From positions 79,174,001-79,238,000 of the forward strand of contig NW_026262712.1 in the NCBI RefSeq assembly GCF_021869535.1: a stretch of 64,000 nt of DNA. The letters are read 5' to 3'. The DNA is from Mytilus californianus (Eukaryota). A program made the translations under genes and the position numbers. Each line of letters opens with the position of its first letter. Positions within the stretch are counted from its first letter, which is position 1. Below, piece by piece: positions 1,801-40,092 of the stretch. Below the pieces are notes generated by a model. The model did no database searches, was not told the origin of the DNA, and was given only the letters and a program-made list of their open reading frames with translations.

Positions 1801-3747
1801 CTAAAATAGAAACAAAATGGAGCTGTAAATAATCATTATTCATTTTTTTATAACGTCATATAATTTTTTTTCCTTCTTTTGGCGAAGGTAACACAGTAGC
1901 TCTTAATCTTTACAAAGACTACCTCGAAACGTCAGTTATTCAATCCAAACTAGCATAGAACTAACTTAAATAACGACAAGTTTCTAAAACAGACTGTTAC
2001 TTCACTGTTAATTTATACTTGACATGAGTTATGCATTTTGAAATTAATTTTCGATGAAATGGTTATAAGTAACATTATGTTGTCTCCACTGACGGGATGA
2101 GTTTAAATTAGAATGAAAAGATTTATGTGTGTTCACTTAACTTCTCTTTGGAATGAAATCGTATATCTTTGGAAAGCACATATTATCATATTGATGAAAA
2201 GCAAGGTCAAAATTAATGTCTACTATGGCTACAATTTCTTGCCGAAATAGTTAAATATCTTAGTATACCATTATGTGATATAGTATATGCATGATTGTTA
2301 ATGAGTTAAATATTAAGTTCTTTTTATTTTACACATTCTTTAGAAAAATAAAGAAAGTATGTCGAATAGGCAGACATTTTGCTTTGTAACATACAACCTA
2401 CGGCCTATCAAAGAGTTGTTGCACAGAATATATAGAAGTTGCAGAGATCATGACAGTCCCATCTCATTCGTTTCAGTTTAACTGCCGAACGCGAGAAAAC
2501 CTAGGTGATCATATTGCTAATTATCTGTGTTTAATGAGTGTGTATTTTCTTTTTAAATTCCTCATGACGTTCTGTTCAATTGTTAACGGAGCAATTTGAT
2601 AACCCATATGAGAGTTATTTTCCTGGGTTGAGTTGCTTTGGTGACTTCTTCTACAGTTTTCCCCTTTAAAAAGTTGAAATCCTCTTTAACAGTATATTGT
2701 ATCGACCTAAGTTCTAATATTTTGAGATCCACGACCTATGATCTTGAATTTGAGGTCAAGGTCAATGGTATATTTTATATTCTAGATTTTGACCTTTAAT
2801 AATTTCATACTGATATACGATAAAACCATGGAAAGTCACTTTTTCTAACCAGAAGTAGCTTTTTAAACTAGCTTCAGGTATAAGTACCTAGAAACCATAT
2901 ATTTTTGTTTCAGTGTAACGTAACCAATAATTTTTCCATCGGAAGTGATATTTTGTAAACCGGAAGCAGCAAATCAGCTTCCTTTTTCTCAAGTCAAGGT
3001 ATGTAGAATACTTATGCTGCTTTCCTTTGGCTCTTATACACACTTTCAGAGATCATTAAACTTCATGCAATATCTTTTCAATTGTTTAAGGTTTTGTGTC
3101 TTTGGGTTGTGTGTATTTCCTTACTCACAATCCCTCCAACCCGTGGAAAAATAAATTGTTAAGGATGTTTGATGCCTGGCTTTATTGAGAAGTTGGAACT
3201 GGCATGTGGACAAGAATTAAGTTTATTTTATATTTTATATCATAGGCACGAGATTGTGTTTGGTTTCATGTTTTTTTTTCATGTAAACCTGACCTACACC
3301 TATCGTGTTCTTACTTGATCCCCTCCTGTAATGGCCTGGGATTCACATGGTACATGTAGAGGGTGCAAATGCATTTTTATTAGTTCAGACTTTTTTCAAA
3401 TGTTTGTATATACAATTTATCTCGAACAGATGTCCATTTCTGAAAATGATACATATTTCATGTTTCTTTTTCATTTGGAGGGTCATGTTAAGGTCATGTA
3501 CAACATTGATTAGACTGAAAAATTAATTAACAACGTGCTCCTATGGATAAATAATCTGTTGAAAGTAATATTTTTGAAAAAAGCAAATGATTCATGTTTT
3601 AAGCAATATAAACCATTTAACCAAACCAAAGACCAGAGATGTTAATGTTTAAGTACAATTACACAGAAGACATTTTTAGTCAAACAGATGCTGCAGTTTT
3701 GTTATGACTTTCATGTTTGTTTATAAATTTTTTTAAGATTTTGTCTA

Positions 3748-13035: not shown

Positions 13036-13103
13036 ACAAAAGAGGGGCGAGAGATACCAGAGGGACAATCAAACTCATAGATTGAAAACAAACCGACAAC
13101 GCC
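13036..13103 (-). mobile_element. Left part of a Penelope-like 3'-end repeat interrupted by the Polinton-like element
   Basis: Matches the uninterrupted copy at ~51775-51840 (…ctcataaatcgaaaataaactgacaacgcc). Confidence 0.85.
13098..13103 (+). other. Target-site duplication AACGCC (left copy)
   Basis: Identical hexamer at 28334-28339. The uninterrupted paralogous site gacAACGCCatggct is at 51832-51846. Confidence 0.95.
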
Positions 13104-13419
13104 ACACAATATCACACACCTATACCCCCCTCCAAAAAAAAAAAATTTGACCCCCAAAAAATTACCCTCATTTCAAGTAAAAGAGCCCTAAATTTTCATA
13201 AAAAAAAAAGCAAAAAAAAACGCAAAAACACCAAAATTTTCTTACTCCCAAAAAAATTTTTTTTTTACTTTGGAAAAAAACGTTATTAAAAACACCCAAA
13301 AAACAACAAAAAAATTCCAAAAAAAAAAATAAATAAAAAAACCGGGAGAACAGGCGAAGAAAGAATTCTGTGGGATTTAAGAGAAAAAAAAAAAAAATCA
13401 ATTTTTACTTTAAAAAATG
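13104..13419 (+). repeat. Left terminal inverted repeat (316 bp)
   Basis: Starts ACACAATATCACACACCTATACCCCCC. Reverse complement of 28021-28333 apart from about five differences (substitutions and homopolymer lengths). Ends at the ATG at 13417. Confidence 0.97.
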
Positions 13420-13998
13420 AAACAACCTACAGCTCCTGATTTATATCCAGAATTACCTATAGAAGATGGACAAAATTATAGACTACAAAAAATAACAGAA
13501 ATAGAAAAAACATTAATAAATGAGAGAGATAAACGTAAATCACTATACAAAAAATATAAACGCGGAGTTAATGTTACTGATGGTGTTGATACAAGTTTAA
13601 TTTCGACATCTGTTGTTTTAGCTGGTATAGGAATAGCTTTTCCTATCTTACTTCCCATACAAATTGCAGCTGTTGTATGTGGAAGTTTAGGAAGTCTAGT
13701 TAAATTAATTAGAAGAAAGTTGACAACAAAATCAAAAAAACATTATGAAATTAAAACAATGGCAGAATGCAAGTTAAACAGCATAAAAGATTTAATATCA
13801 AAATCTTTAACTGACGGACAGATAAGTGTAGATGAATTTAAACTTATTTTAGATGAATTAGAAAAATTTAATGAGATGAAAAAAAATTAAAAAAAAGTAA
13901 TTTTAAAAAGTTTACCAGATGATGAAAGAAAAAAACTAATTGAGGAAACAGAAAATAGAGTAAAAAACGAATTAAAAAAAAAAATGGAAAATCTTTGA
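13417..13998 (+). CDS. Viral protein with two hydrophobic segments and a helical C-terminus; in-frame TAA at 13888-13890
   Basis: 157-aa ORF with hydrophobic stretch SLISTSVVLAGIGIAFPILLPIQIAAVVCGSLGSLV. The same frame continues past the TAA as KKVILKSLPDDERKKLIEETENRVKNELKKKMENL* to 13998. Confidence 0.8.
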
Positions 13999-14070
13999 TT
14001 TTCTTTAATAAAATAATTTTAGTTGATAACGGAAATCCACCAAACTATGAATCAATTTTTAATTAAATAA

Positions 14071-14205
14071 ATGGATGAAGAAACAAAAGAAAAATTAGTA
14101 AAAAATGTAAAAATAATGTTAAATAAAAAATTTAATTATTTTTATCTTAAGTTGTTTTTAACAGGTTCTTTTTATTGTTTATTATCTAATATTTTAGATG
14201 AATAA
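14071..14205 (+). CDS. 44-aa small viral ORF with one hydrophobic segment
   Basis: MDEETKEKLVKNVKIMLNKKFNYFYLKLFLTGSFYCLLSNILDE*, preceded by TAAATG. Fills the gap exactly up to the next start at 14207. Confidence 0.5.
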   Translation: MDEETKEKLVKNVKIMLNKKFNYFYLKLFLTGSFYCLLSNILDE

Positions 14206-14206
14206 A

Positions 14207-15532
14207 ATGGCTGAAGGAGGTTATGAGTTTGATAATCCTGAGTTTAAAAATAATGATTATGATGATGATTATGAAGAAGAAGAAACGTCTTTTCAAGATG
14301 ATGAAGAGTTTCAAAATAATATAAATAAGGAATTTGAAATATCAAGAGATTTATCAGAAAATGATGTTAAAATTCGTAAAAAAGAAACTACAAAAAAAAT
14401 GATTAAACAATTTTATAAAAAAAATGGTGAAACTATACGTAATGAAGAGGTTTTTTTTGTTGGGGAAAATCATAAGGGAAGACAAATCTTATATGTAAAA
14501 GATGAAAAAGGTAATGATATTGCATTAACATATTACCAAAAAGGAGTATTAAAGTTTTATAAATTTAGCACTCTTCAAAGAGAATACGGTGTTAATTTTG
14601 TCAGGGATGTTTTAGGTGTAGATGATTATAAAATATCTGATAATTTAAGAGAAGGTAGAGCAGGGTTTCAGAGAATGTTAAATGAACTCGATAATATAGA
14701 AATTCCATTACAAGAAATATCTACACAAGAAGAAGGACAAGAATTATTAGAAACAGCAAGTAATGCAGAAACATATGTGAAAGAAATAGAAACTTCATTT
14801 ATTGAACAAGGAACATCTTTAATAAATGAAGAAACACAAACAAAAATGACAAAAAGAGAGATGGATGGTATAATAAAAGCATTTACAACAGCGGAAGATG
14901 AGATTGCAAATAATTTAGCAAAACTGAATGAAACAAATAAAGACTTAGCAAAAGAAAATGCCAAATTAGAACAAGCTAAAGAAGACAATAATAAATTTCA
15001 AATAGATAGAATAAGTAGTCGAATAAGAGAGTTGGAATCTGAGAGAAGTGCAAGACTAGAAGTAATTAATATTAATAAAGAAAAACTACGTAGTCAAGTA
15101 AACAGATTTAAACAAACAATACATAAAATGTTAAACGAAGACAAAACATTAGGTGAAAGAATAAGAACATTATTCAGAGAACAAGGAATAACAATAGTTA
15201 GTGTTTTAACTGCTTTTGGAATGATTATTGGTGTTATTGTTGAAGCATTTACTGGTGGAACTACTTCTCCTTCTCCTTCTCCTTCTCCTCCATCAAAAGG
15301 TGGTGGTGTACAAGACTGGATAAAAAAACAATTAAAAAATCTTGGAAAATTATTATCTTTTCTTGCAGGAAAATTAGCAGCTGCATTACCAGGTATTATA
15401 GGTTCTATTGTTTCTTGGTTATTGTCTGCAACAAAAGACGTAGTAAATTGGTTTGCAAACAACTTATGGGCATTGCTTATTTTAGTTGTTAGTTTATTGT
15501 TTACTGCTGCTAGAGATTATTTGAAAAAATAA
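14207..15532 (+). CDS. Viral coiled-coil protein with an acidic N-terminus and a C-terminal hydrophobic/amphipathic region
   Basis: 441 aa from the TAAAATG start (MAEGGYEFDNPEF). Heptad-rich middle. Hydrophobic segments ITIVSVLTAFGMIIGVIVEAF, LAAALPGIIGSIVSWLL and LWALLILVVSLLF. Confidence 0.85.
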   Translation: MAEGGYEFDNPEFKNNDYDDDYEEEETSFQDDEEFQNNINKEFEISRDLSENDVKIRKKETTKKMIKQFYKKNGETIRNEEVFFVGENHKGRQILYVKDEKGNDIALTYYQKGVLKFYKFSTLQREYGVNFVRDVLGVDDYKISDNLREGRAGFQRMLNELDNIEIPLQEISTQEEGQELLETASNAETYVKEIETSFIEQGTSLINEETQTKMTKREMDGIIKAFTTAEDEIANNLAKLNETNKDLAKENAKLEQAKEDNNKFQIDRISSRIRELESERSARLEVININKEKLRSQVNRFKQTIHKMLNEDKTLGERIRTLFREQGITIVSVLTAFGMIIGVIVEAFTGGTTSPSPSPSPPSKGGGVQDWIKKQLKNLGKLLSFLAGKLAAALPGIIGSIVSWLLSATKDVVNWFANNLWALLILVVSLLFTAARDYLKK

Positions 15533-16749
15533 AGTGCTGTAAATCCTATTACAATACTTACAAATATTATTGCTTGTTTATTATCTTCATGATCTTCATG
15601 TTCAATTTTTTTTATTGGATCTATTTTTGGTTCTTTAGGCTTTTCAGGTTTTATAGGTTCTTGTGGTTTTACAGGTTCTTTTGGTTTAAAATCAACATGA
15701 TCAAAATTTTTATTATTTAAATCATCATTTAACCCAAGTGTTTGATTTTCTGTTGCAATTATAATTTTATTATTATAACCAACAATACTTCCAATTTGTA
15801 AAACCATATCACTGGGAGACATATATAAACCAAGTCCATAAGCATAATCAACTTTACTTCTTGCATATTTTAAAACATTTTCATAATTCGATATCTGGGT
15901 GGGTAAATCGATAGGACTATTTATTACATCTTGTACATTTGCTAAGAATTGTTTTTGTGCATCAAATCCTGTTCCTACTTTTAAAATTTTTGTTTTTGTT
16001 TGAGATTGTGCACCTAACAAAGCCCATACATAAATTTTAATACTTTCATTAATGCGTTCAATACCTGCTTGTGTAAACCCATTAGAGTTATCTAAAATAA
16101 ATGTTGTCCAAGCCATACTTATATCTTTTTCATGCTTAATAGTATCATGAGTACTAAAGAAAGGTCCTTTAATTTTATTTCTTTGTCTATATTCTCCACT
16201 TGGTTTATAATATTGCTCAAAACTTCCTAATCCTTGACATGATGATTCTAGTTTTTGTCTCCAATTTGTATTTGGAGAAATATTAAATTCATCACATAAT
16301 TTCTGATATGCAGCTTTGTCATATGGGTTCTTGTAATAACAGAAAGAAGAATCTGTTGGTAAAGGTGATTTAAGTTCTTTTAAAATTCTGGCAATACAAT
16401 AATATAAATGAAACATATAAAAAGACTTTGTAAGATTTGAAGTATTTTGTATATGATCATTATAAGAAACACCACATCCTGTACTTGCACACCAAACTGC
16501 AAAATTTAACTGACATTGCCACCAATCAAATGAAGAATGAATCCAGGCATTCCATGGTTCGTTAGTGTGTATTGATGGGTTTTGATAGTTTTGAAATAAA
16601 TCAGGAAAAGCTGTTTTAAAGTTCTCTTTTTGATTTACAAATATCGTTTGATTTACAAGATTTGTTTTTAATTGATGATCTTTTTCAGAATATTTAATAC
16701 CTGGATTATATGAAACATTAGGATTATATTTAAATTCTTTTGTTATCAT
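15517..16749 (-). CDS. 410-aa viral protein of unknown function with a C-terminal membrane anchor
   Basis: Globular-looking body (WWQCQLNFAVWCASTGCGVSY), Pro/Lys/Glu linker (KPKEPVKPQEPIKPEKPKEPK), then AIIFVSIVIGFTALYFF at the very end. Confidence 0.85.
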   Translation of the reverse strand: MITKEFKYNPNVSYNPGIKYSEKDHQLKTNLVNQTIFVNQKENFKTAFPDLFQNYQNPSIHTNEPWNAWIHSSFDWWQCQLNFAVWCASTGCGVSYNDHIQNTSNLTKSFYMFHLYYCIARILKELKSPLPTDSSFCYYKNPYDKAAYQKLCDEFNISPNTNWRQKLESSCQGLGSFEQYYKPSGEYRQRNKIKGPFFSTHDTIKHEKDISMAWTTFILDNSNGFTQAGIERINESIKIYVWALLGAQSQTKTKILKVGTGFDAQKQFLANVQDVINSPIDLPTQISNYENVLKYARSKVDYAYGLGLYMSPSDMVLQIGSIVGYNNKIIIATENQTLGLNDDLNNKNFDHVDFKPKEPVKPQEPIKPEKPKEPKIDPIKKIEHEDHEDNKQAIIFVSIVIGFTALYFFK

Positions 16750-16764
16750 TTTTTTATATTAAAA

Positions 16765-17406
16765 ATGTTTTATACTATTTCAAATATTGATAATACAATA
16801 AACTTAGAACAATACATAAATAACAGAAATGGAAATAAACGTATTGGTTTGAAATTTATAAGATACAGCATAGGTTGGTATAATGTTTATCATGGGTTTA
16901 TAACAAAAACCGGAGAGGAACAGCAAAGGATTATGAATGGTTATTATAGTTTTCAACAAATGGTGGATGAATTTCAAAAAGAAAATATTGTATTATCCGT
17001 AAATGAAGCAAATGGTATCGCTTCATTAAACACTACTACTGAGTTAAGGATAAGTAAGGGTTTGGGAAATATGTTAGGGTTTAATAATAAACGTAAATTC
17101 GAACCTAATGAATTACATTATGGAAACAAATTTGTGGATTTTGCTATCCATAAATCATTATATATCCATTTGGAACAAGTTAGCACTTCTCATAATTATC
17201 TTGATGGTAAGCCAAGTAAATTATTAGCTGTTATTCCAGTTGAAAATAAAGAGTTTGGTGAAGTTATAACAGCGAGATTTGAGCATCCGGAATATAAGTG
17301 TTTAGTAAATGATGTTATAACAGAATTGAAATTAGAAATAAGAGATGAAAATAATAACAAGATAATTAATCATTTACCAATTAATTGTGTTTTAGAAGTT
17401 ATATAA
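16765..17406 (+). CDS. Putative minor capsid protein (penton, single jelly-roll)
   Basis: 213 aa with Polinton penton-type motifs GWYNV, LGNMLGF, LLAVIPVENKEFGEVI, PEYKCL and LEIRDENN. Located upstream of the major capsid gene. Confidence 0.75.
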   Translation: MFYTISNIDNTINLEQYINNRNGNKRIGLKFIRYSIGWYNVYHGFITKTGEEQQRIMNGYYSFQQMVDEFQKENIVLSVNEANGIASLNTTTELRISKGLGNMLGFNNKRKFEPNELHYGNKFVDFAIHKSLYIHLEQVSTSHNYLDGKPSKLLAVIPVENKEFGEVITARFEHPEYKCLVNDVITELKLEIRDENNNKIINHLPINCVLEVI

Positions 17407-17419
17407 TTTATTTAATAAA

Positions 17420-17943
17420 ATGAGCATACTTGGTGTCAAAAAAAAAACGTAGAAAAAGAAATATTAAATATGAAGAGTGAGCTTCAAACAATGGATACTA
17501 AGGATAAAAATTTACATCGGAGTGTCGCTGCCCTAAGCATCAGAGTTTTAAATGTTGAAAATATAGTTGGTAATATTAAAAATAAACCAGACAGAAAAAT
17601 AATAAGTATATATGCTGGAATTGATGGTCCAATACATGGAAATAAAAAGTTTAATTTTGGTGTTGGTGGTGGTTATTATGTAATGAACTTTCCAGGACAA
17701 ATATTGGGTATTAGTTTAGTAAGTTTAAGAACAAACACAGATATTATAGCCATTAAGATGATTGTTAATGATAAGTCAACTAGTTACAAAATGAGTTTGG
17801 GTAATGGTGTCACACACGGTTTTAATAACTTTTATACACCTTTTGAAGTTAAGGCTGGAGATTTAATAAGTTTTATTAGTATGACTAATAATTATACATG
17901 TATCAATACTCTAGTATCAGTGATAATTGAATTATTTTTATAA
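17420..17943 (+). CDS. Putative fibre/spike-like protein (short coil plus beta-rich head); homopolymer frameshift near the 5' end
   Basis: 157-aa ORF from 17470. An upstream TAAAATG at 17420 (MSILGVKK..NVEKEILN) joins in frame if the A10 run at 17438-17447 were A11 or A8. The C-terminal part has alternating beta-type and Gly-rich motifs. Confidence 0.55.
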
Positions 17944-17961
17944 CAAATTTAATCCTTAAAA

Positions 17962-19227
17962 ATGTCGGCATACGGAAACAAATTAAATCCTTACAGAAAA
18001 ATAAGAGAACCCCGTGGTGTGAAAGGTATTCGTCAAAGTGTATCAATAACAAATAATCCTTCAACTATTGATCAAAATCAACAGCTATTAGTGAGATTCC
18101 CCAATCTAAGCAATAATGATGTTATTGTTCCTGGAACAACCAGATTGGCATTTGAAATAGAACTCACATCTACAGACGACAATGCAACTATATATCAAAA
18201 CATAGGAAGAACAATAGTTAAAAAAACAACAATTCGTATAAGTGGAAATGAAATTATGTCAATTGATGATAGTGATATTTATCATTTTTATGTTGATTTA
18301 TGGAAATCTACATCTGAACGTTTAAATATGGCATACCAAGGAATTGGTGAAACAAACATGTTAAAACACAGAGTTGGTGCAGATAATAAAGCATCAGACA
18401 TAGGTGATGAAGCAATTGCAACTGCATATGGTGCAAGATTTTGTATCCCACTTGATTTTGAACTATTAGAAACTCATATGCCTTTTTATCAAGCAGGTCT
18501 TGGTGATAGACTTGAATATGAACTTACATTTAATAATTATAGCAATGTTATTAAATCAACAGATACATCTGCAAGTTATACAATCAAAAACATTTGTTTA
18601 GAATTTGATATGGTTACTGATGCAGAATTAGCAAGACAGATAAGACAACAAGTTAATGGTAAGATGGTTATTTTGTACGATAGAATACTAAGACATAGAA
18701 AAATAACCAAAAACAAATCTGATACATTGTGGAATATAAATTTAAATGTTCCAGCTAGAAGTATGAAAGGAATTCTAATGTTGTTCGAAGATCCTGAAAG
18801 AACAAGTACCGAAACTTATTATAATCCTAACATAACAAAAGTAGAAATGACAATAGAAGGTGTTCCAAATCAACTATACAGTCAAGGAATGAAAGCATAT
18901 CAACAATGGGATGAAATAAATAAATTCTTTGCTTTAAATTCAAAAAGAAATAAAACAACAGAAGAAGTTTTAAAGGATTTAAATTTATCCTATACAACAT
19001 TAGAAAAATATCTTACAACTAATTATGCATTATGGTTAGATTTACGTTCAACAGATGACAACTCATTACACGGTTCAGGTAGAAGAATTGAAAATGCTTC
19101 TGAAGGTATTACTATCCAAATAACTAAAACAGCAGGAGCAAATAAATTAATAAATGTTTATCTGTTTGTTATACAAGATGCACAAATTAATTTTGAAGAT
19201 GGAAGATTTAAAGAAGTTAATTACTAG
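17962..19227 (+). CDS. Putative double jelly-roll major capsid protein
   Basis: 421 aa, beta-rich pattern (LLVRFPNL, RLAFEIEL, FCIPLDF, LEYELTF, ICLEFD) and a C-terminal VYLFVIQDAQINFEDG strand typical of this fold. Size and position next to the penton fit. Confidence 0.8.
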   Translation: MSAYGNKLNPYRKIREPRGVKGIRQSVSITNNPSTIDQNQQLLVRFPNLSNNDVIVPGTTRLAFEIELTSTDDNATIYQNIGRTIVKKTTIRISGNEIMSIDDSDIYHFYVDLWKSTSERLNMAYQGIGETNMLKHRVGADNKASDIGDEAIATAYGARFCIPLDFELLETHMPFYQAGLGDRLEYELTFNNYSNVIKSTDTSASYTIKNICLEFDMVTDAELARQIRQQVNGKMVILYDRILRHRKITKNKSDTLWNINLNVPARSMKGILMLFEDPERTSTETYYNPNITKVEMTIEGVPNQLYSQGMKAYQQWDEINKFFALNSKRNKTTEEVLKDLNLSYTTLEKYLTTNYALWLDLRSTDDNSLHGSGRRIENASEGITIQITKTAGANKLINVYLFVIQDAQINFEDGRFKEVNY

Positions 19228-19610
19228 TAATTGCTGTCTTGACGAACAAGTTCTGCAATCTTATTCCTTTCGGTAATCAATTCACTTATTTTTATTTCCA
19301 ATGTAGTTTTTTCTTCATTCTCGTATGTTCTTTTCGTTGTCAATTTTTTGAGTTTAGTCTTTGCACTAACTTTTTGTCTTGTTAATCTCAACCAAATCCG
19401 TCTTTTGTTTTTATCACCAAAATCTTCTTTAGCTTTGTTTATTCTATCGGTCAACAATTCAATTTCCTTTTTTGTACTGTTTATTTCTGTATCTTGTAAA
19501 TTTATCGTATTATTATGTTTTGCTAACAACGTTTCTAATTTTTCTAATTCATCCGACACTTTAACTAAATTACATCTTCTCAATTCAGATTCCATTTTGA
19601 ATATGAACAT
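19224..19610 (-). CDS. Basic coiled-coil viral protein, unknown function
   Basis: 128-aa ORF, heptad-rich; its stop overlaps the capsid gene stop. The true start may be the ATG at 19595. Confidence 0.65.
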   Translation of the reverse strand: MFIFKMESELRRCNLVKVSDELEKLETLLAKHNNTINLQDTEINSTKKEIELLTDRINKAKEDFGDKNKRRIWLRLTRQKVSAKTKLKKLTTKRTYENEEKTTLEIKISELITERNKIAELVRQDSNY

Positions 19611-19633
19611 GTCACAATTAGGTAGTTAAGATA

Positions 19634-19856
19634 GTGTTTACTGCAACTAAGTAAGTGTTTACTGCAACTAAGGAGTTGTTTATTGAAACTAAGTAAGTGT
19701 TTACTGCAACTAAGTAAATGTTTACTGCAACTAAGGAGTTGTTTACTGTATCTAAGTAAGTATTTATTGAAACTAAGTAAGTGTTTACTGCAACTAAGGA
19801 GTTGTTTACTTTTGTAAAAGTGTAACTAAGTAAGTGTTTACTGCAACTAAGGAGTT
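19634..19856. repeat. 21-bp minisatellite, ten units with core GTTTACTGCAACTAAG
   Basis: TRTTTAY heptamers start at 19635, 19656, 19677, 19698, 19719, 19740, 19761, 19782, 19803 and 19835. Confidence 0.95.
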
Positions 19857-20366
19857 AATCAATAATCCAATTACAGAACTGTTGATATTTTTACATTCCA
19901 TCTATCATTGTATCACTTACAATTTAAAAATTCAGTCATAGTATTGATTATTTGAGTAAAGATAATAAAATGGAGAGAATTATCAATTATCATTTAATTC
20001 AATACTAGTTCTCATCTTCTCTTATTAATGTGATAAAATGCTCAATGGGGTGTATTGTTATTCTTTGTGATAATAAGTTAGTAAATATTAAAGTATTGAT
20101 GTGAAGTGTTGTATTTTATTGAAATAATCATTGCTGTATCATTTGATCCTTGGGATCATTATTATTTAAAATGGATAACTCATTAAAATTGAAAGAAACT
20201 TGATATTTTATAGCCTTGATAACATATTAAGCAATTGAGGCATTTAAATTTCTTTTGTTATATAGGTTTTATAAAAGTGTTTCTAAAGTAAGTGTTTAAT
20301 TCAATAGGATATGACTTTTAAATAAACTAAATCGATCATTGTAAATATTTACAGGTACCTAGAGAT

Positions 20367-21185
20367 TTAAAACTTAGTCATCTGTAATTCTTGTTCATAA
20401 AATCCACCTTTAATATCTTCGCCTTTTAAATCAATTATTCTATAAGTAACAGGGTTTGTATTTAAAACTTTTTCAATTACAAATATTTCTTTGGTCCAAC
20501 GAGTAGTATAACCCTTTTCAAATTTACCTTTCTTTTTTGTTATTCTTACTCTAACACCTACTTTGAATTTAGGTTTTTTAATTTTCTCTTCCTTTTCTGG
20601 ATATAAATTTTTATACACTGTTAATTCATTTTTTAATTTACTTGCTTGAACAGGTGTCATTTTAATTGAAGAATGTACTGTATTATTATAATTTTTAACT
20701 AATTTATCTAATATATCATAATATTTTAAAGTTTCATTAGCAGTAAAGTATTTAAACATATGTTGTTTCATTGTACCTATCCAGCGTTCCACCACGCTGC
20801 TCTTTTCCTCATTCTCAGTTGAATATAACTTTATGTTATTATCTTTTAACAATTCTTTTACTTGTCGATTATAAAATTCAGATCCTTTATCCGACCAAAT
20901 ATACATTGGTTTTCTTTCTTTAAATAATGTTTTAAATGCTTCACTCACTGCTACTCCTGTTTTATTTTTCAATGGAATCAACCAACCATATTTACTAAAA
21001 ACATCTATAACTGCTAATAAATATTTATAGTGTTTATTTTGTTTTGAATATTGTTGTATATCTATCAAATCAACTGCCCATGTTTGATCTATTGAATTAA
21101 CATAAACACGTCTTTTAGGAAAAGATTTTATAACTCTATGATGTAATTCATCTGCTAATTTATTTGTTAGATTTGTTTTAGACAT
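20367..21185 (-). CDS. INT: Retroviral-type (rve, DDE) integrase of Polinton type
   Basis: WAVDL (D), IWSDKGSEF (D) and SSVVERW (E), plus the Polinton C-terminal region KFKVGVRVRI…FEKGY…WTKEIF…FYEQELQ. Confidence 0.95.
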   Translation of the reverse strand: MSKTNLTNKLADELHHRVIKSFPKRRVYVNSIDQTWAVDLIDIQQYSKQNKHYKYLLAVIDVFSKYGWLIPLKNKTGVAVSEAFKTLFKERKPMYIWSDKGSEFYNRQVKELLKDNNIKLYSTENEEKSSVVERWIGTMKQHMFKYFTANETLKYYDILDKLVKNYNNTVHSSIKMTPVQASKLKNELTVYKNLYPEKEEKIKKPKFKVGVRVRITKKKGKFEKGYTTRWTKEIFVIEKVLNTNPVTYRIIDLKGEDIKGGFYEQELQMTKF

Positions 21186-21215
21186 TTTTAAGTAACTAAA
21201 ATGTTTTCTTAAAAA

Positions 21216-24200
21216 ATGGAGGCAAAAAAGGATAAAATTTTATCCAAGCGAGAAGATTCATATAAACTTGTTTTGACAAAAGAATATAAACATAAAGCAA
21301 GTATTTATGTATTTAATTATAAAATTAGTCTAAAGGATGAAAAACAAGAAACATTTACAAATGCTTTTGACCACATGGTAGACTATTCCATAAAAGATTA
21401 CCCTAATGGAAGAATTAAAATAGTACCTATTCATGAAATCATAATTACTAAACATAAAAGCTGGCCTATAAGAACATATAATACAGTTAAAAAGTTATTC
21501 ATGGATCAAATGGAAAGATTATTAAATAGTGCTGAAGAATTAAATTTAGAAGAAGTTATTTTTGAAGTTACTATTATACCCAATAAAAGAGGAAAAGGTA
21601 AAGCTTTAAAAATATTAGATGTCATAAATAAAAGAAGTATTATCAAAATAAAAAATGATGATACAATATGTTTATCAAGGGCAATTGTAACTTCTTTAGC
21701 TTCAAATAAGTTATTAAAAGATTTTACAGATTCTCAATTAAAACACATTAAAGAGGGTAGACCATTACAAAAAAGAGTTGCTGAAAATTTACATGAACAA
21801 TCAGAAGTAGAAATAAAAGAAGAAGGAAATGATTTAGACGATTTAAAAGCTTTTGAAAATTATTTTAATATTAGGATAATTGTTTTTGCATCAAATAGTA
21901 CAGAATATATTGTATATGGTGGTAATGAAGAATATAATGAACAAATATATTTATATTATCATGATGAACACTTTGACACTATAACAAATATAACAGGATT
22001 TTTAGCTAAACGTAGGTTTTGTAAAGTATGTTTAATTGGTTATACTGAACAACATACATGCAAAGATAATACAGTAACAACTATCAGAAAACAACATATT
22101 TGTGATAAATGTAACAAAACATATACAGGTAAAAATCACAAATGTGGTGAAAAAATATGTTTAATATGTTATGAAAAATACACGGAAAGTAATGAAGAAC
22201 ACTTATGTTATATGAAACCATCAGTACCAAAACAAGTAAAAAATAATTAATATATATATTTTGATTTTGAAGCAAATCAAGAAACAGGAATACATATAAT
22301 GAATTTTTGTATAGCTTACGATTTAAAAAATATTTATTGTTTTAAAAATAACTATGTAAAAGTATTTAAATGTGATTTCAATATTGATAATTTAAACTTG
22401 TTAGAATTAGACATAGATGATTGTTTTAGTGATGTAGAAAAAATTAAATATGAAACAAATTCTGTAATAGACAACTTTTGTAAATATTTCATAAGAGATA
22501 AATTTAAAGACTACACTTTTATTTCACATTATGGAAAAGGTTATGATATGCAACCGATTTTAGGATACATTGTAAAAAATAAAATTGAACATAACATAAT
22601 TTCTTCTGGACTAAAATTAACAGCTATATTTATTAAAGGAATAAATTTAAGATTCATAGATTCTATAAATTTTACATTATGTGGATTAGCTGCTTTCCCA
22701 AAAACATTTGGATTTGTGGGTAACAAAGGTTATTTTCCACATTATTTTAATACAACAGAGAATCAAAAATATGAGGGAATTTATCCTAATAAAGAATATT
22801 TTGGTTATAATACTATGACAATTAAAAATAAAGAATTATTTGATGAATGGTATAATAAAGTTAAAGAAAAAGAATTTAAATTCTATAAAGAAATATTTTA
22901 TTATTGTCTATTGGATGTTTTAATTCTTGCCAAAGGTTGTACCTTATATAGAAAATTATTTTTAAATATAACCAATAATTGTATCGATCCATTTCAATAT
23001 ATTACAATTGCTCAATGTTGTACAAAAATATTTAAAACATTAATGTTGACAAATGAAACAATTGGAATTCACAAAAAGATGACAATTAAAGAAGTACATT
23101 CACAAAAATCAATACAATGGTTAGAGTATATTTCTTTAGAATATAATATAATGATTCAACATGCTAAAAGGGGAGGTGAAAAGAAATTATTCATTAATAA
23201 TAAATGTTATAAAGTCGATGGTTATTATTATGATAGAGAAAATAAAATGCGGAATGTTTATGAATTTTTTGGATGTTATTGGCATGGATGTACAAAATGT
23301 TATAGTCCTGAAGAAATATGTAAAAAAGATAGAAATAAAAAAACTATGAAAGAGTTATATAACCAAACTAAAGAAAGACTTAAAACTATTGAAGATTATC
23401 TAAAACCAAATGTAAAAATTCATACAATATGGGAATGTGAGTTTGATCAACAAAAATATCCTGAAGTTGATCCACATTTAAAACCTATTGATAAAAGAGA
23501 TGCATTTTATGGAGGAAGAACAGAAACTATTCAATTATACAATAATCTTTCTGATTTAAAAGGTAGATATGTAGATTTTTGTTCTCTGTATCCATCAGTA
23601 AATAAATATTGTAAATATCCTATAGGACATCCTATTACATCTACAGAAATATCTGTAGATGATTATATAAAAAATAATTATTTCGGAATAATGAAATGTA
23701 AAATATTACCACCTAAAGGATTGTATCACCCTGTTTTACCTTATAAACAATTAACTAGTGATAATACACATAAATTACTTTTTGGATTATGTAGAACATG
23801 TATGAATAAAATATCTTTTAAATGTAAACACATAGATGATCCTACTTTAAATAAACATGATAAAATACATGAAATAAAAAGATGTAAAGAATGTAAAAAT
23901 ATTAAAAATGAAAAATGTATACATTCTGATGAGGAAAGAGTTATAGTAGGTACATGGTCTACAATAGAAATAGATAAAGCAATAGAAAAAGGTTATGAAT
24001 TACAAAAAATATATGAACTAGAACATTTTGAAAAAACATCTACAGATATATTTAAACTTTATGTAGATACGTTTATGAAATATAAACAAGAAGCTTCAGG
24101 ATGTAAATGTGATCCTAAATATTGTAAAAATGATTGTAAAAACGATAAAGAATGTAAAACAAAAATACAATACATTATAGATAATACTGCTTATGATCTA

Positions 24201-24974
24201 GATATTGACAAAGTTAAGTACAATTCAGGATTAAGATTTATAGCTAAAATATGTTTAAATAATTTATGGGGACATTTTGGTATGAGAGATAATTTTACAC
24301 AAAAAGAATATTGTTTTACTTTAGAACATATAACTAAAATAGTATTTAATGAAAAATATAAAGATATAAGTACTATGATATTAGATGAAGATATTGTTTT
24401 AACAGAATATAAAAATAAAGAAGAATACTCTAAACCTAATCCAAGTGTAAATGTTTATATAGCTTTGTTTACAACAGCACATGCTAGATTAAAATTATAC
24501 GAACTATTGGATATTCTTCAAGAAAGAGTTTTATACATGGATACAGATTCTTGTATTTATAATGATGATGGTTCTGAAGCTTGTAAAAAAATAGAAAGTA
24601 TGATGGGAAATAAATTAGGAGATTTAACAGATGAAATTGTTTCAAAACATAACGCTAATCATATAAAACAATTTATATCTGCTGGTCCAAAAGATTATTC
24701 TATGAAACTAGATACAGAAAAACTAGTTAGCTGTTGTAAAGGTGTTAGATTAAATGCTGAAGTTGAAGAAAAGATTACATTAGATAAAAAAATAAAAATA
24801 GTTACTGATGAAAATGAAAAATATGAAACTGTTCAATATGACAACATAAAAATAGAAAAAGATCATCAACTTAAAACAGTTAAACAAGTTAAAGCTTATG
24901 ATTATATGTTTGATAAAAGAATGGTATGTTATGAAAATGAAAATCTAATTAGAAGTTTTCCTTATGGATATTAA
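21216..24974 (+). CDS. pPolB: Protein-primed family B DNA polymerase; one reading frame interrupted by TAA at 22248-22250
   Basis: Track ORFs 21216-22250 and 22299-24974 are in the same frame, and ExoI YIYFDFE directly follows the stop. ExoII SHYGKGYD, ExoIII YCLLDV, motif A DFCSLYP, motif B KICLNNLWGHFG, motif C YMDTDS. Confidence 0.95.
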
Positions 24975-25021
24975 AAAATATATAATTTAAATTTTTATTT
25001 TAAAAAATAAAAGACTAAAAA

Positions 25022-25270
25022 ATGATTGAAGCTTATACTGAGAAAGATGATCCTGACGCTAAAGTTATATTAGGAAGAATAATGTTATCAGATTATCAGA
25101 TATGTTGTTTAAGAGATGATGGAGAATGTCCTTTGACTCCAAAACAAATGGAAGTAATGGAAAAGTTTGATGGTAAAAAGTTATCTAAGTTTCCTCCTGG
25201 TTGGGATGCTTTTATTAGACCAGATAAAGTTTATGAATATGTTTTTGAAAAACCATGTCCTGAAATTTAA
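25022..25270 (+). CDS. 82-aa viral ORF, unknown function
   Basis: TAAAAAATG start just after PolB. Complex amino-acid composition, unlike a shadow ORF. Confidence 0.65.
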   Translation: MIEAYTEKDDPDAKVILGRIMLSDYQICCLRDDGECPLTPKQMEVMEKFDGKKLSKFPPGWDAFIRPDKVYEYVFEKPCPEI

Positions 25271-25452
25271 TTTTTTATTTTATTTTATTTCTCTATACCC
25301 CTAAAAACAGAAAAAGTACAGGAATAGTACATACTTTTTTCTGCAATTTTGCTGTTTTTACCAGGAAAAGTACAGAAATTAGGGACTCTAATTTTTATCA
25401 TTTTTTTCTTATTTTTCCAATTTTTCATACAAACGTAAATTGTATTTATTTT

Positions 25453-25873
25453 TTATTTTAATTTCCAAACAATAAAACCAGTTAATGTCATACCACCAAC
25501 AACAAATGCAATCTCTCTATTTTTCTGGTCTTCTGATGGAGTATAAAAATCACTTAATGTAGGTTTAGGTGATAATGAAGTTAATTTTTTTATTCGTGAC
25601 ACGATAGTATAGTTTCATTGCCTGGTCAACATCATCAAAAGTCTGAACCGCATGATGTTCCTTTTGTAATTGTTCATTTATAAAATCTAATCTTTGTATT
25701 CTTTTTTTATTCCATTCTGATTGTGCTTTTTCTAATTTTTCTATAGCTTTATCATGTCTTATTTTCTCTTCATTTGCATTACTACCCATATGTGAAAATA
25801 AATAATTACTCCCTGAAAATGCAAAAGCATTTGTTATTGCCCCACCAAGCATCATTGTTAAAGCACTTGCCAT
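25453..25873 (-). CDS. Viral protein with N- and C-terminal hydrophobic segments flanking a coiled coil; one-base homopolymer frameshift
   Basis: Track ORF ends at 25565. Removing one base from the 7-nt run at 25585-25591 extends it with KKLTSLSPKPTLSDFYTPSEDQKNREIAFVVGGMTLTGFIVWKLK*, giving 139 aa. Confidence 0.75.
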
Positions 25874-25889
25874 TTTATAAAAACAAAAA

Positions 25890-26126
25890 TTACTTCATAA
25901 TATCAGCAGGTATAATACCTTGCTTAATCAACATATCTTTTGTTGCTATCGCAAGTAATATATCAATGGATAACATTACAACATCATTCATATTAAAATC
26001 CACTTTTGGTGCTGGCCTCCTTAATACCTTTTTACCTATTTCTGCATATCCAACTGTTAACAATGTTTCCACTCCAGCATGATATAACATATTTGCTATT
26101 TGTTTTCCGTCTTTTTGAGTTGTCAT
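25890..26126 (-). CDS. 78-aa small hydrophobic viral protein
   Basis: TAAAATG start, tightly packed in the minus-strand block after the ATPase. Segment VVMLSIDILLAIAT. Confidence 0.7.
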   Translation of the reverse strand: MTTQKDGKQIANMLYHAGVETLLTVGYAEIGKKVLRRPAPKVDFNMNDVVMLSIDILLAIATKDMLIKQGIIPADIMK

Positions 26127-26141
26127 TTTAATGTACTAAAT

Positions 26142-26540
26142 TTAATTAAATTCAAAAGGATCAATTTCTTTCTTTTGTTTTTCTGGTTTTGTTATTTCTT
26201 TAATCATTCTTTCTGGTTTCTTACTTTGGTTGTAAAAAAACAATCCCAATCCAACAATACTTATAGGAAAAAGTACAAATTTGTAATCAACTAGGGAACT
26301 GGAGTGTTTTTTGACAGAAGGGATATGTTCGTTTGATTCATAATCTGTTTCTGTATCAGAATCTTTTGTTATTTGTTTGATTTTTGAATTTTCTTTTTTT
26401 AATTTTTCCACTTCTTTTTTTCTCAATTCTGCATTTCTTATTCTTACTTCTGCACCTTTCTTACCAGCAGCTACTCTTTTTGGGTCTTTTGGTTTGGGTT
26501 TTTTAAATACTTCTTTTTGTTCAGGATTTTCATTCATCAT
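26142..26540 (-). CDS. Basic viral protein with a single transmembrane segment
   Basis: KPKDPKRVAAGKKGAE basic motif, a coil, then FVLFPISIVGLGLFFY. Confidence 0.75.
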   Translation of the reverse strand: MMNENPEQKEVFKKPKPKDPKRVAAGKKGAEVRIRNAELRKKEVEKLKKENSKIKQITKDSDTETDYESNEHIPSVKKHSSSLVDYKFVLFPISIVGLGLFFYNQSKKPERMIKEITKPEKQKKEIDPFEFN

Positions 26541-27168
26541 TTTTTATGTCATTATTTTCATCTTTTTTTCGGAAATCGAGCGAAGCGAATGGTTCAATAT
26601 GTCTTGCTGTTGTTAATATTGCAGTAAAAGGAGCAAGATACATTCCATATCTATAGTACAGTTCACAACATGTATTAGTTAAAGCATTATTGATAAAAGG
26701 ATCTTCCTCTAAGTCTTGTATTAAAATTGGTGGATTAACAACTTTGAAAAACTTTGATACACCTATGACATATAAATTTATAAAAGAGTTTCCTAATGTC
26801 TTGGTCATACTAGCTCCCAATCTTGCTTCATATTTACAGTATAGTTTGTTTATTTGCTCTGTTGTCATTTTATCAATATCTGACAGTTGTAATTCTTTAC
26901 CCAGATATTGTTTACTACTCCCACCAGCAACAACGGATGATAATCTTTCGCGTTTTTTTTCTTGAAGGGAACCGTTCACTTCGCTCGCTTCATCATCAAT
27001 ATTTATGTTTTCCACAATTTGCTCGCTTAATAATTCTTCAGCATTCATTTTATACGTTTCAAAAAACGGATATAATTTATTTTTAACTTTAAAAAAATTA
27101 AATACAACATATCCAACCAATGATAAGACTGCAGTGTTTGTTGCAATTGTTAGTATTTCCAACAGCAT
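26530..27168 (-). CDS. 212-aa viral protein with an N-terminal membrane anchor
   Basis: ILTIATNTAVLSLVGYVVFNFF at the N-terminus, followed by a helical domain (LYCKYEARLGASMTKTLG…LYYRYGMYLAP). Confidence 0.75.
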   Translation of the reverse strand: MLLEILTIATNTAVLSLVGYVVFNFFKVKNKLYPFFETYKMNAEELLSEQIVENINIDDEASEVNGSLQEKKRERLSSVVAGGSSKQYLGKELQLSDIDKMTTEQINKLYCKYEARLGASMTKTLGNSFINLYVIGVSKFFKVVNPPILIQDLEEDPFINNALTNTCCELYYRYGMYLAPFTAILTTARHIEPFASLDFRKKDENNDIKNDE

Positions 27169-27180
27169 TGCTTTTTTTTA

Positions 27181-27356
27181 TTGCTTATTTTGGTTAAATT
27201 ACTTAAGAATTACTTATTTTGGTTAAATTACTTAAGAATTACTTAAGCATTACTTAAGCATTATTTTGCTTATTTTGGTTAAAAATTTTGGTTAAATTAC
27301 TTAAGAATTACTTAAGCATTACTTAAGCATTACTTAAGCATTACTTGAGAATTGCT
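27181..27356. repeat. 11-bp minisatellite (TTACTTAAGCA/TTACTTAAGAA) interspersed with TTTTGGTTAAA units
   Basis: TTACTT starts at 27199, 27210, 27228, 27239, 27250, 27297, 27308, 27319, 27330 and 27341. Confidence 0.9.
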
Positions 27357-27363
27357 AAAAAAA

Positions 27364-28023
27364 TTAATCAAGTAACCAATAATCAGTAGGTTGATCTGTC
27401 TTTAATATTAATTTACGATGTTTCTTTTTTTTAAGTTCTTCCTTTATTCTTTGTCTTTCTTCCAAAGTAGGAATAACATCATTTTCTCTTAGGCAATTAT
27501 CAAAACTATCTCTATCTTTTGTGTAGAACATGCATAACCATTTTGTTTGTTCTCTTAAATCTTTTAAAACAGAGTTGTATCTCTGTGAAATGACCCACAC
27601 TGATTGTTCCGCATGTCTTCCTGAAAATGCAAGCTCGGACAGCATATCTTTTTTCTTTGTTAGTTCTTTTGTTGCACTGCAGTCATCAATGATATATAAT
27701 GTTGGATGACCAGCATATTTTTTAAAGAACATTCTTAGTAGTTCTTGTAGCTTCTCTTCTTCTTTGACAATAGGATTAACAATTATTAGATTTTTTGTTT
27801 TTGGTTTTCTAACATCACCAATCCATTCACGATTTTTGTATGCTTTGTTCCATTGAATTGTTGGACAAAGTATGACTATATGTTTAAAAACCCCACTATA
27901 TTCTTTTTCTAATAAATCAAGAACAAACTCCGTTTTCCCACACCCAGTTTGTCCACATATAATAGCACAATGTGGATATTTTGGTAATTCGGAGTGTATC
28001 TCGCTCCGCTCGTTCGATTCCAT
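27364..28023 (-). CDS. A32-like genome-packaging ATPase (FtsK-HerA superfamily)
   Basis: Walker A GQTGCGKT, Walker B LYIIDD, and the A32 signature FSGRH…VWVISQ. Start taken as the TAAAAATG at 28023, since the upstream codons lie in the TIR. Confidence 0.93.
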   Translation of the reverse strand: MESNERSEIHSELPKYPHCAIICGQTGCGKTEFVLDLLEKEYSGVFKHIVILCPTIQWNKAYKNREWIGDVRKPKTKNLIIVNPIVKEEEKLQELLRMFFKKYAGHPTLYIIDDCSATKELTKKKDMLSELAFSGRHAEQSVWVISQRYNSVLKDLREQTKWLCMFYTKDRDSFDNCLRENDVIPTLEERQRIKEELKKKKHRKLILKTDQPTDYWLLD

Positions 28024-28333
28024 TTTTAAAATAAAAATTGATTTTTTTTTTTTTCTCTTAAATCCCACAGAATTCTTTCTTCGCCTGTCCTCCCGGTTTT
28101 TTTATTTATTTTTTTTTTGGAATTTTTTTGTTGTTTTTTGGGTGTTTTTAATAACGTTTTTTTCCAAAGTAAAAAAAAAAATTTTTTGGGAGTAAGAAAA
28201 TTTTGGTGTTTTTGCGTTTTTTTTTGCTTTTTTTTTTATGAAAATTTAGGGCTCTTTTACTTGAAATGAGGGTAATTTTTTGGGGGTCAAATTTTTTTTT
28301 TTTGGAGGGGGGTATAGGTGTGTGATATTGTGT
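28021..28333 (-). repeat. Right terminal inverted repeat (313 bp)
   Basis: Reverse complement of 13104-13419; ends …GTGTGATATTGTGT. Confidence 0.97.
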
Positions 28334-28677
28334 AACGCCATGGCTAAAAAATAAAGAGACACACAGACAAATAATAATACACAACACACAACATAGAAAA
28401 CTAAAGACTAAGCAACACGAACCCCACCAAAAACTGGGGGTGATCTCAGGTTCTCCGGAAGGGTAGGCAGATCCTGCTCCACATGTGGCACCCGTCGTGT
28501 TGCTTATGTTATTACAAATCCGGTAAATAGTCCAATTCGGTAGTAGGTCACATTCGTGAAAAGGGAAGGGTGTTGTAGTTACGACATAAGGAACATATCC
28601 GATATCATCTGTGAAACGGTTATTCCATAACGGTCAACCAACTCGTGATTGCGTCCGTAAAATTTACGAAAGGATGA
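28334..28677 (-). mobile_element. Right part of the interrupted Penelope-like 3'-end repeat (starts with TSD AACGCC)
   Basis: Continues collinearly with the copy at 51835-52170 (atggctaaaaa…gcaacacgaaccccacc…ggtcaaccaactcgtgat). Confidence 0.85.
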
Positions 28678-39099: not shown

Positions 39100-40092
39100 A
39101 CGCGTCGACCTTCGCGATTCTTAAAATTATTCATGCATCTTGTTCGAATGTTTAGTGTCTTTCCTTACAGTGCTGTCGGCTATTGTTATTTTGTTCTTTT
39201 TGATTTTGGTCAAATCATTTGTATGAATTTTGTTTGCTTGGTATGCTAGGCTTTGGACAGTTGTTATTACTACATAATGATTTGTATATATTTGCACGGT
39301 AAGTCACATTATCTGTTTTGTTTTAAATAGAATCCTGAATAGCCTTTGTTCTACTTTTGTTATCTGGAGGTCTTTGGTCACGAAAGTTTTGCATAATTTT
39401 GACTCAAACGGAGATGCACTGCATATCGTTGCCTCTTCAAATTTCGATTTTATTCTTGGAAGCTGAAATCCTTAATCGGGTAATTGTGATTTAAAGTTCT
39501 TCATAATAGCATCATCATTGACAACACTAGATTTATCATATGGCGATTTTAAAGATGTTCGGGTGTTCAGCCTCAGTAACTGGCCATGGACTGTTACAGT
39601 AAGGATCTTGAATAACCCTATCCTACTTGTATAAGCATGCGGTTCTCGTAACGAAGTGTTGCTTAATGATGACTCAAAAGAAGATTTTCTGCTTGTCGTT
39701 ATCACTTCTTTTAATTTTGGGTTTGCAGAACAATACATGATATATGATGATTTGTCTTTACTTTGACGTTCAGCTTCAGCAAATGTTTTGTTGGTCAAAC
39801 ACTATCAGTGACACAACTAAGCTCTGAATAATTGTTCTTTCCACGTAGTGATTTTAATATTCTTGGACGTTCAGCTTCAGTAAATGGTCTGTTACAGTAT
39901 GAGTCTTGAAAAACCCCTGTTTTACTTTCATAAACTTGATGTCCTTTGACACATAACGAAGTTTTTCTTAAGGTTAACCCATTAAAAGAATCATTGCACA
40001 TCGTTGCCTCTTCGTTGGATTTTGTTTTTACACTTGAAATGTCTATTTGTTGATTGGGTACTTGTGATTCCAAGTGGCTCGTAAAAGTATGA
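39100..40092 (-). pseudogene. Frameshifted continuation of the ~96-aa repeat region of the upstream gene
   Basis: Track ORFs 39795-40073 and 39472-39798 carry the same repeat (ESQVP, KTSL, NKTFAEAERQSKDKSSY). Frame breaks near 40100 and 39795. Confidence 0.7.

Follow-up and report, generated by a model that had tools for sequence, protein, structure and literature searches.

A 21-bp tandem array with forkhead-consensus heptamers ahead of an accessory gene in a mussel Maverick-Polinton: a candidate phased binding array

The 21-bp repeats of SV40 carry Sp1 boxes. Promoter variable tandem repeats, going by the accessible parts of PMC3899988 and PMC3188502, have a short, copy-variable unit upstream of a gene in which sites are locally duplicated, and the altering of site number by such promoter repeats is a known mechanism (PMC3899988, same part). 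In fission yeast, the FLEX motif of the wtf genes, which are selfish elements, places TGTTTAC shortly upstream of the gene start (PMC9762604 and PMC9562144, available portions), and the wtf4 driver depends on a motif that includes TGTTTAC, located about 110 bp ahead of its start (PMC9762604, as far as the available text goes). Adenoviruses, a related class of linear DNA virus, have packaging A-repeats that are AT-rich and redundant and function as pairs spaced by 21 bp, according to the accessible portion of PMC5033970.

The array treated here occupies positions 19634..19856 of the window, by which we mean the whole 64-kb stretch of DNA analysed. As in promoter tandem repeats, its units are in tandem, vary in copy number (judged from one spanning contig), are non-coding and adjoin a gene start; in contrast to them, it lies in an endogenous animal virus-like element, and both its binder and its effect are putative. 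With the wtf motif it shares TGTTTAC shortly upstream of a gene start in a selfish element, whereas FLEX is a single site conserved across its family, with ChIP and deletion evidence in the available portions of those sources, and the array has ten copies, with conservation seen among close copies only. Unlike the adenovirus A-repeats, it has no TTTG-N8-CG, is internal and is not in all copies.

Promoter repeats of Polintons were not found described in the literature, as far as the accessible text of the sources goes, and repeat-library entries or supplements could contain such a description. The word 'promoter' occurs 0 times in 10.1101/2023.08.22.554363 and 10.64898/2026.06.19.733378, and the available parts of PMC10294476 and 10.1101/2022.07.28.501842 mention no such arrays in Polintons. 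We conclude that the array is real, ordinary in kind and new in its Polinton setting. It bears on how animal Maverick-Polintons are transcribed and activated, and a short, copy-variable array with two candidate words is amenable to direct bench testing; if neutral, it is an ordinary minisatellite of little interest.

The host element and its gene order

The array belongs to an endogenous, virus-like Maverick-Polinton of 15.2 kb (13104-28333). Its left terminal inverted repeat (13104..13416, plus strand, 313 bp) matches the right one at 98.4% and pairs with it (28023..28333, minus strand), and a 6-bp target duplication, AACGCC, stands at 13098-13103 and 28334-28339. The genes recognised include a major capsid protein of 421 aa (17962..19227, plus), a retroviral-type integrase (rve) upstream of the array (20367..21185, minus; PF00665, E 2e-11), a protein-primed family B polymerase (21216..24974, plus; PF03175, E 1.2e-31), broken by an in-frame stop at 22248-22250, and an A32-type packaging ATPase (27364..28023, minus; PF04665, E 1.9e-14). 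The capsid protein matches PF16903 weakly (E 0.004, below cut-off); it is 100% identical to a Mytilus edulis protein cluster and has 4303 homologues. By eye, the polymerase (21216-24974) also contains a VSR-like nuclease segment, as in mollusc pPolB2 elements in the accessible descriptions of these.

Terminal inverted repeats, target duplication, polymerase, integrase, ATPase and capsid, the last by its weak profile match, are therefore all present, as in the definitions of Maverick-Polintons given in the available portions of 10.1101/2023.08.22.554363 and 10.64898/2026.06.19.733378. With Maverick-Polintons (Polintoviricetes) of the mollusc pPolB2 type the element shares the repeats, the 6-bp duplication, integrase, polymerase, ATPase, capsid and a size of about 15 kb; it departs from typical ones in having no detected protease and in a gene order that differs by rearrangement from that of 13 related loci. 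A Pfam scan of 16 element ORFs gave neither a cysteine protease (adenovirus-like, a group 1 trait) nor any DNA-binding family. Relatives of the capsid and the integrase were absent among viral contigs, and relatives of the capsid among prokaryote genomes. Virions of animal Maverick-Polintons go unreported in the available parts of 10.1101/2023.08.22.554363 and 10.64898/2026.06.19.733378.

Of the related loci in which both genes were detected, 13/13 have the ATPase gene after the capsid gene on the same strand, an order also present in most contigs of the runs examined and in gene model P0005. The window is rearranged at 19227-28023: the ATPase block is inverted and adjoins the right terminal repeat, whose end coincides with the ATPase start codon. 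Contigs that lead from the capsid gene into the 123-aa gene described below differ at 7 positions in the capsid tail, and the tail in the window matches the other contig type, so this copy looks like a recombinant of two subfamilies. The replication module has been exchanged relative to locus L006, whose capsid is 86% identical and whose polymerase has no tblastn match to that of the window.

The array and the gene beside it

TRF calls the array region a tandem repeat of period 21. It is a minisatellite (no strand assigned) of ten 21-bp units with two alternating tails, the TRTTTAY heptamer filling columns 1-7 and CTAAG columns 13-17. The heptamers start at 19635, 19656, 19677, 19698, 19719, 19740, 19761, 19782, 19803 and 19835, that is, in eight steps of 21 bp followed by one of 32 bp; eight read TGTTTAC, one TGTTTAT (19677) and one TATTTAT (19761). 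Ten heptamers at these spacings, eight of one type and two variants within the consensus, had been predicted, and so had a location just upstream of a minus-strand gene within a virus-like element; both descriptions hold, the gene being conserved and the array non-coding. Consensus RYAAAYA sites occur in 10/10 units and the exact core GTAAACA in 8/10; TTGTTTAC is present twice (units starting at 19740 and 19803) and AACTAAGTAA five times.

The 32-bp step is due to an insertion in unit 9 (19811..19823, no strand), where 13 letters replace 2 for a net gain of 11 bp; the inserted letters form a 5-bp inverted repeat with the heptamer of their own unit. Inverted repeats of 5 bp around a 4-nt loop (5-4-5) occur in all three unit types and in 3.2% of random units. 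Units 3 and 7 disrupt the AGTAA/TTACT inverted repeat, yet keep the forkhead consensus. As a whole the array folds no more stably than its shuffles (z -0.45 as DNA, +1.65 as RNA), and an Rfam search with it, run to E 1, returned nothing. Scans with the unit as a pattern returned 4, 7 and 14 single matches, never with a second copy, which were treated as chance; blastn showed no similarity between the first 4 and the window.

The densest other 223-bp stretch in the 64-kb window has 5 TRTTTAY sites, and dinucleotide shuffles of the array (n=2000) have 0.42 on average and 3 at most. A motif scan with shuffled controls had been proposed as a check, and the excess of ten sites over the shuffled maximum of 3 fails as proof of enrichment: the ten sites are units of one minisatellite, so the heptamer spacing is the repeat period, and given the period-21 repeat they amount to a single site copied, for which the shuffle null is the wrong one. 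A null at unit level was drawn instead from 4971 random 21-mers of the element, made cyclic. TRTTTAY occurs in 6.3% of these and exact GTAAACA in 0.7%, while 29% contain at least one of 30 strict factor motifs. An exact forkhead core in the unit is thus uncommon, though with many motifs in play it is unremarkable.

Along the minus strand, the integrase is followed by a 510-bp AT-rich gap, the array and a 123-aa accessory gene (19224..19595, minus), whose end abuts the stop of the capsid gene. The ORF is readable from 19610 (128 aa), 24 bp from the array end; the start Met at 19595, common to all 7 homologues aligned, leaves the array 39 bp upstream. With homologues at 35-85% identity, the gene is real and conserved. 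Structure prediction gives its protein as a two-helix hairpin (pLDDT 95), with no Pfam family above cut-off, Atlas hits under 0.9 and, in the PDB, generic helical hairpins but no matching fold at E up to 0.001. Gene models of Mytilus trossulus (three accessions) also have the integrase and then the 123-aa gene on one strand, so that this order is not unique to the window. By depth, the gene stands next to the capsid in a minority of contigs (220 vs 501 in X9). Neither it nor the array was found in any of 24 metagenome loci, and the gene with flanking DNA was obtained from close copies only.

The gap between the array and the integrase 3' end (19857..20366, no strand) is AT-rich and non-coding. 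In X12 and X15, 359 of its bases (19908-20266) give way to 37 letters, and these contain a CCAAT box as well as a perfect CRE palindrome (TGACGTCA), at a distance of 51 bp from the array; the element in the window has no CRE. The pair of motifs is compatible with a host polymerase II promoter region.

Constancy of the array words here and in related loci

Over the ten units, 2 of the 7 heptamer columns and 5 of the 14 spacer columns are variable (Fisher p=1.0; p=0.66 with the insertion column counted). The heptamer was expected to be the constrained part of the unit, an expectation that finds no support here: AACTAAG is the most constant of the 21 seven-column windows. CTAAG is invariant in 10/10 units, as is the T following the heptamer, and full TAAGTAA is found in only 6/10. 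The statement that the heptamer holds while its neighbours vary survives in part, in that both variants stay within the forkhead consensus, whereas the longer invariant run is in the spacer. Under uniform mutation two in-consensus variants have a probability of about 0.01; the two changes are transitions at the heptamer's only G and only C, and under G/C-biased mutation with assumed rates the same outcome is expected at 0.11-0.22.

Contigs of other samples were taken from 4 of the 20 runs containing the region; they give neither strand nor expression level, and X15 is an RNA library that may contain DNA. In all 4/4 runs contigs cover part of the array, and one contig (X15) spans it, with five units to the window's ten and without the 32-bp step; the keeping of that step thus finds no support in the only spanning contig, and the unit-9 insertion is partly covered by an X12 contig. 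The gene-proximal unit of X15 has lost its heptamer (1/5 units) and kept CTAAG at the same distance. The other runs list no substitution within the array, short contigs in a repeat being apt to hide variants, and contig-cover gaps over the array in X9 and X10 were not counted as evidence. Database protein P0122 contains 3 translated units, in one of which a start codon takes the position expected for the first codon of the heptamer (protein sequence only). Both heptamer losses could concern edge units. On this small sample the heptamer is not specially conserved within the array and mutates as freely as the spacer, an outcome that the original prediction had named beforehand as telling against itself.

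The element has a second array (27180..27353, no strand, period 11 bp), which immediately precedes a 212-aa gene (start at 27168) and has nine TAAGTAA on the minus strand. It has no forkhead site and holds the CTAAGYAA word (CTTAAGTAA). TAAGTAA occurs 9 times in this array, 6 times in the first and 8 times in the rest of the 64 kb. RTAAACA and CTnAGYAA were counted in 20 related loci, what remained of 24 fetched once L005 and L018 (near-identical to the window) and L014 and L026 (near-duplicates) were dropped. Family-wide use of FOX sites finds no echo there: non-coding DNA has no excess of RTAAACA (6 in 15,093 bases, against 33 in 93,594 coding bases, p=0.46). CTnAGYAA, a word chosen after inspecting the same gaps, has 19 matches in the 15,093 non-coding bases and 20 in the 93,594 coding ones, 13 of the 19 coming from L012 and L013, which are one lineage. 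It clusters in 3/20 loci (L009, L012 and L013), in gaps just before start codons, with 7, 5 and 5 pre-start copies in L012, L013 and L014, and in L009 (capsid 69% identical) two copies of AACTAAGCAA stand at a spacing of 22 bp, to compare with the five AACTAAGTAA of the window array. In that array the word is on the other strand from the gene, but L009 and L012 have it mostly in sense orientation; CTNAG is absent from the L006 and L008 gaps. We take this enrichment as a lead, not as proof.

A motif-blind scan of the Polinton loci returned strong non-coding arrays of period 21, 11, 21 and 22. Periods near helical-turn multiples make up 4/4 arrays at a strict threshold (p=0.004) and 4/6 at a loose one (p=0.04), a test that rests on few arrays, against 1/3 in the host flanks, where weak TRF matches also often have periods of 20-23. 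Helical phasing, which had been read from the spacing of the sites, thereby gains modest independent support as a family trait.

The gap between the ATPase and the 212-aa gene has a short-period, palindrome-rich repeat in the window (27180-27353) and in several relatives (L006 2110-2220, L008 1900-2010, L012 2490-2615, L013 1900-2030 and L014 2070-2200), with best lags, in the same order, of 11, 33/11, 21, 10, 10 and 10; the GC-rich L009, L010 and L011 have no such repeat in this gap. L006 also has a 17-bp repeat at 3549-3590 with three TTTAAACA, directly before a gene that matches a 102-aa ORF of the window. It does not fit the forkhead consensus, and its 17-bp period is non-helical, a counter-example.

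Other promoter words were looked for. TAAG is a late promoter of baculovirus type; sense TAAG precedes 26/97 ORF starts without consistent excess and is absent before the capsid gene of the window, and we rejected it, as we did the mimivirus early promoter AAAATTGA (21 matches vs 19.2 expected). Six relatives have a TATTRAA pair, about 28-41 bp apart, just before the divergent capsid gene and its neighbour (L010 4182-4211, L015 946-974, L016 294-323, L021 669-697, L022 779-820, L028 5178-5206), possibly a compact two-way core promoter. TTRAAC, picked from the same data, lies 15-65 bp before 22/74 curated starts vs 2.4 expected, the rows being related and many matches falling in neighbouring coding sequence; it is a side lead towards a candidate core word of the family. 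The array carries GTAAAC or ATAAAC, not TTRAAC.

Readings of the array

On sequence comparison we tentatively read the repeat as a family-type array for protein binding, phased and promoter-proximal, in which the forkhead core would be a possible lineage-specific extra. The points that speak for it are the position 39 bp before a shared start, the invariance of CTAAG, the related arrays before start codons, the near-helical periods and the CRE and CCAAT box of other copies; the altered X15 unit, in losing the heptamer and keeping the CTAAG spacing, favours CTAAG over the heptamer. The 17-bp repeat of L006, the gaps of L006 and L008 without CTNAG, the full TAAGTAA in only 6/10 units and the differing strand of the word between loci weigh against it. 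Slippage during replication would have made the array grow, and template switching, which we propose from the 5-bp stems and 4-nt loops of the inverted repeats in every unit type, probably gave the multi-base unit variants; inverted repeats of the 5-4-5 type are a signature of template switching in the accessible part of PMC8604942. The array would multiply a binding word, CTAAG(Y)AA, in helical phase, a candidate factor would bind it, and binding would tune transcription of the 123-aa gene by host RNA polymerase II, with the forkhead core perhaps contributing a further host input in this lineage. A host factor is a likelier binder than any protein of the element, on the weak evidence that no DNA-binding Pfam family scored among the 16 element ORFs. 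We take the GYAA half-site to resemble those of bZIP proteins (C/EBP, PAR).

The same repeat could have formed as a neutral or near-neutral minisatellite, by slippage and template switching in a non-coding gap, with the forkhead match and the 21-bp period both due to chance. The identity of heptamer spacing and repeat period fits this, as do the share of random cyclic 21-mers with TRTTTAY (6.3%) or with one of the 30 motifs (29%), the copy number of 10 vs 5, the exchange of the adjoining gap between copies, the 5-4-5 inverted repeats in all three unit types (PMC8604942, accessible part) and the placement of the 123-aa gene after the capsid in only a minority of contigs. We nevertheless regard it as rather doubtful, since relatives have arrays right before start codons, with a shared word and helical periods, and since array units recur in 4/4 runs and the integrase/123-aa-gene order also in Mytilus trossulus. 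The original prediction itself, a host forkhead-responsive enhancer selected for its FOX sites, we judge unlikely. It draws on the exact GTAAACA in 8/10 units (0.7% of random units), a sequence named as the forkhead core in the available portion of PMC9650603, on both variants keeping to the consensus (about 0.01 under uniform mutation), on the invariant T after the heptamer and on the precedent of the wtf4 driver, a selfish element with a forkhead site (PMC9762604, accessible part). However, the heptamer is no more constant than the spacer (p=1.0; 0.66 with the insertion), the variants are G/C transitions (0.11-0.22 under assumed biased mutation), the heptamer is missing from 1/5 X15 units and 1/3 P0122 units (maybe edge units), relatives show no FOX enrichment and the second array lacks a forkhead site. 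The stress or germline activation offered with it is conjectural. By their established specificity, FOX proteins would probably bind the heptamers in vitro under any reading, so that FOX binding by itself could not tell the readings apart. An array for another protein, which had been offered as the alternative, fits the comparative data at least as well as the FOX reading does.

Adenovirus A-repeats suggest a different use, as a signal for packaging or replication to which proteins of the element itself would bind. The 21-bp spacing is the same, the units are AT-rich and redundant (PMC5033970, accessible portion), the element has a packaging ATPase and a protein-primed polymerase, and the family-wide array adjoins the ATPase gene. 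The adenovirus domain, however, lies 220-400 bp from the genome end in the accessible portion of that source and the array 6.5 kb from the nearer end, the unit lacks the TTTG-N8-CG consensus, and the array module occurs in a minority of copies, where a packaging signal is expected in all; we hold this use to be highly improbable. A coding role, with 7 codons per unit as a heptad repeat extending the 123-aa coiled-coil protein, is largely refuted and keeps hardly any credence. Two minus-strand frames are open over nine units, and three units of P0122 are annotated in frame with the gene, but in the window the frame that matches P0122 ends ahead of the gene and the reading frame changes at the 32-bp step, all 7 aligned homologues start at a Met after the array, a search with the translated array had 0 hits among 1123 candidates, and most unit differences alter a residue.

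The preferred reading of a promoter-proximal binding array can be carried further, to a Polinton group that would control selected genes by phased CTnAGYAA arrays immediately ahead of start codons and a mussel subfamily that would have added a host forkhead site to make a joint switch. We consider this extension improbable as a whole. If it is true, the accessory gene would respond jointly to a family factor and a host FOX protein, and such arrays would be the first candidates for cis-regulatory elements in animal Polintons, as far as our literature searches reached.

Tandem repeats also occur in the host DNA of the window. A minus-strand host ORF of 755 aa (40093-42360), with no Pfam family, has about 5.6 copies of a 288-bp (96-aa) repeat within 39862-42360, and a 291-bp repeat similar to it lies at 62194-62962. 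A further tandem array at 54453-56658 has 8.4 copies of a 267-bp unit, 84% alike.
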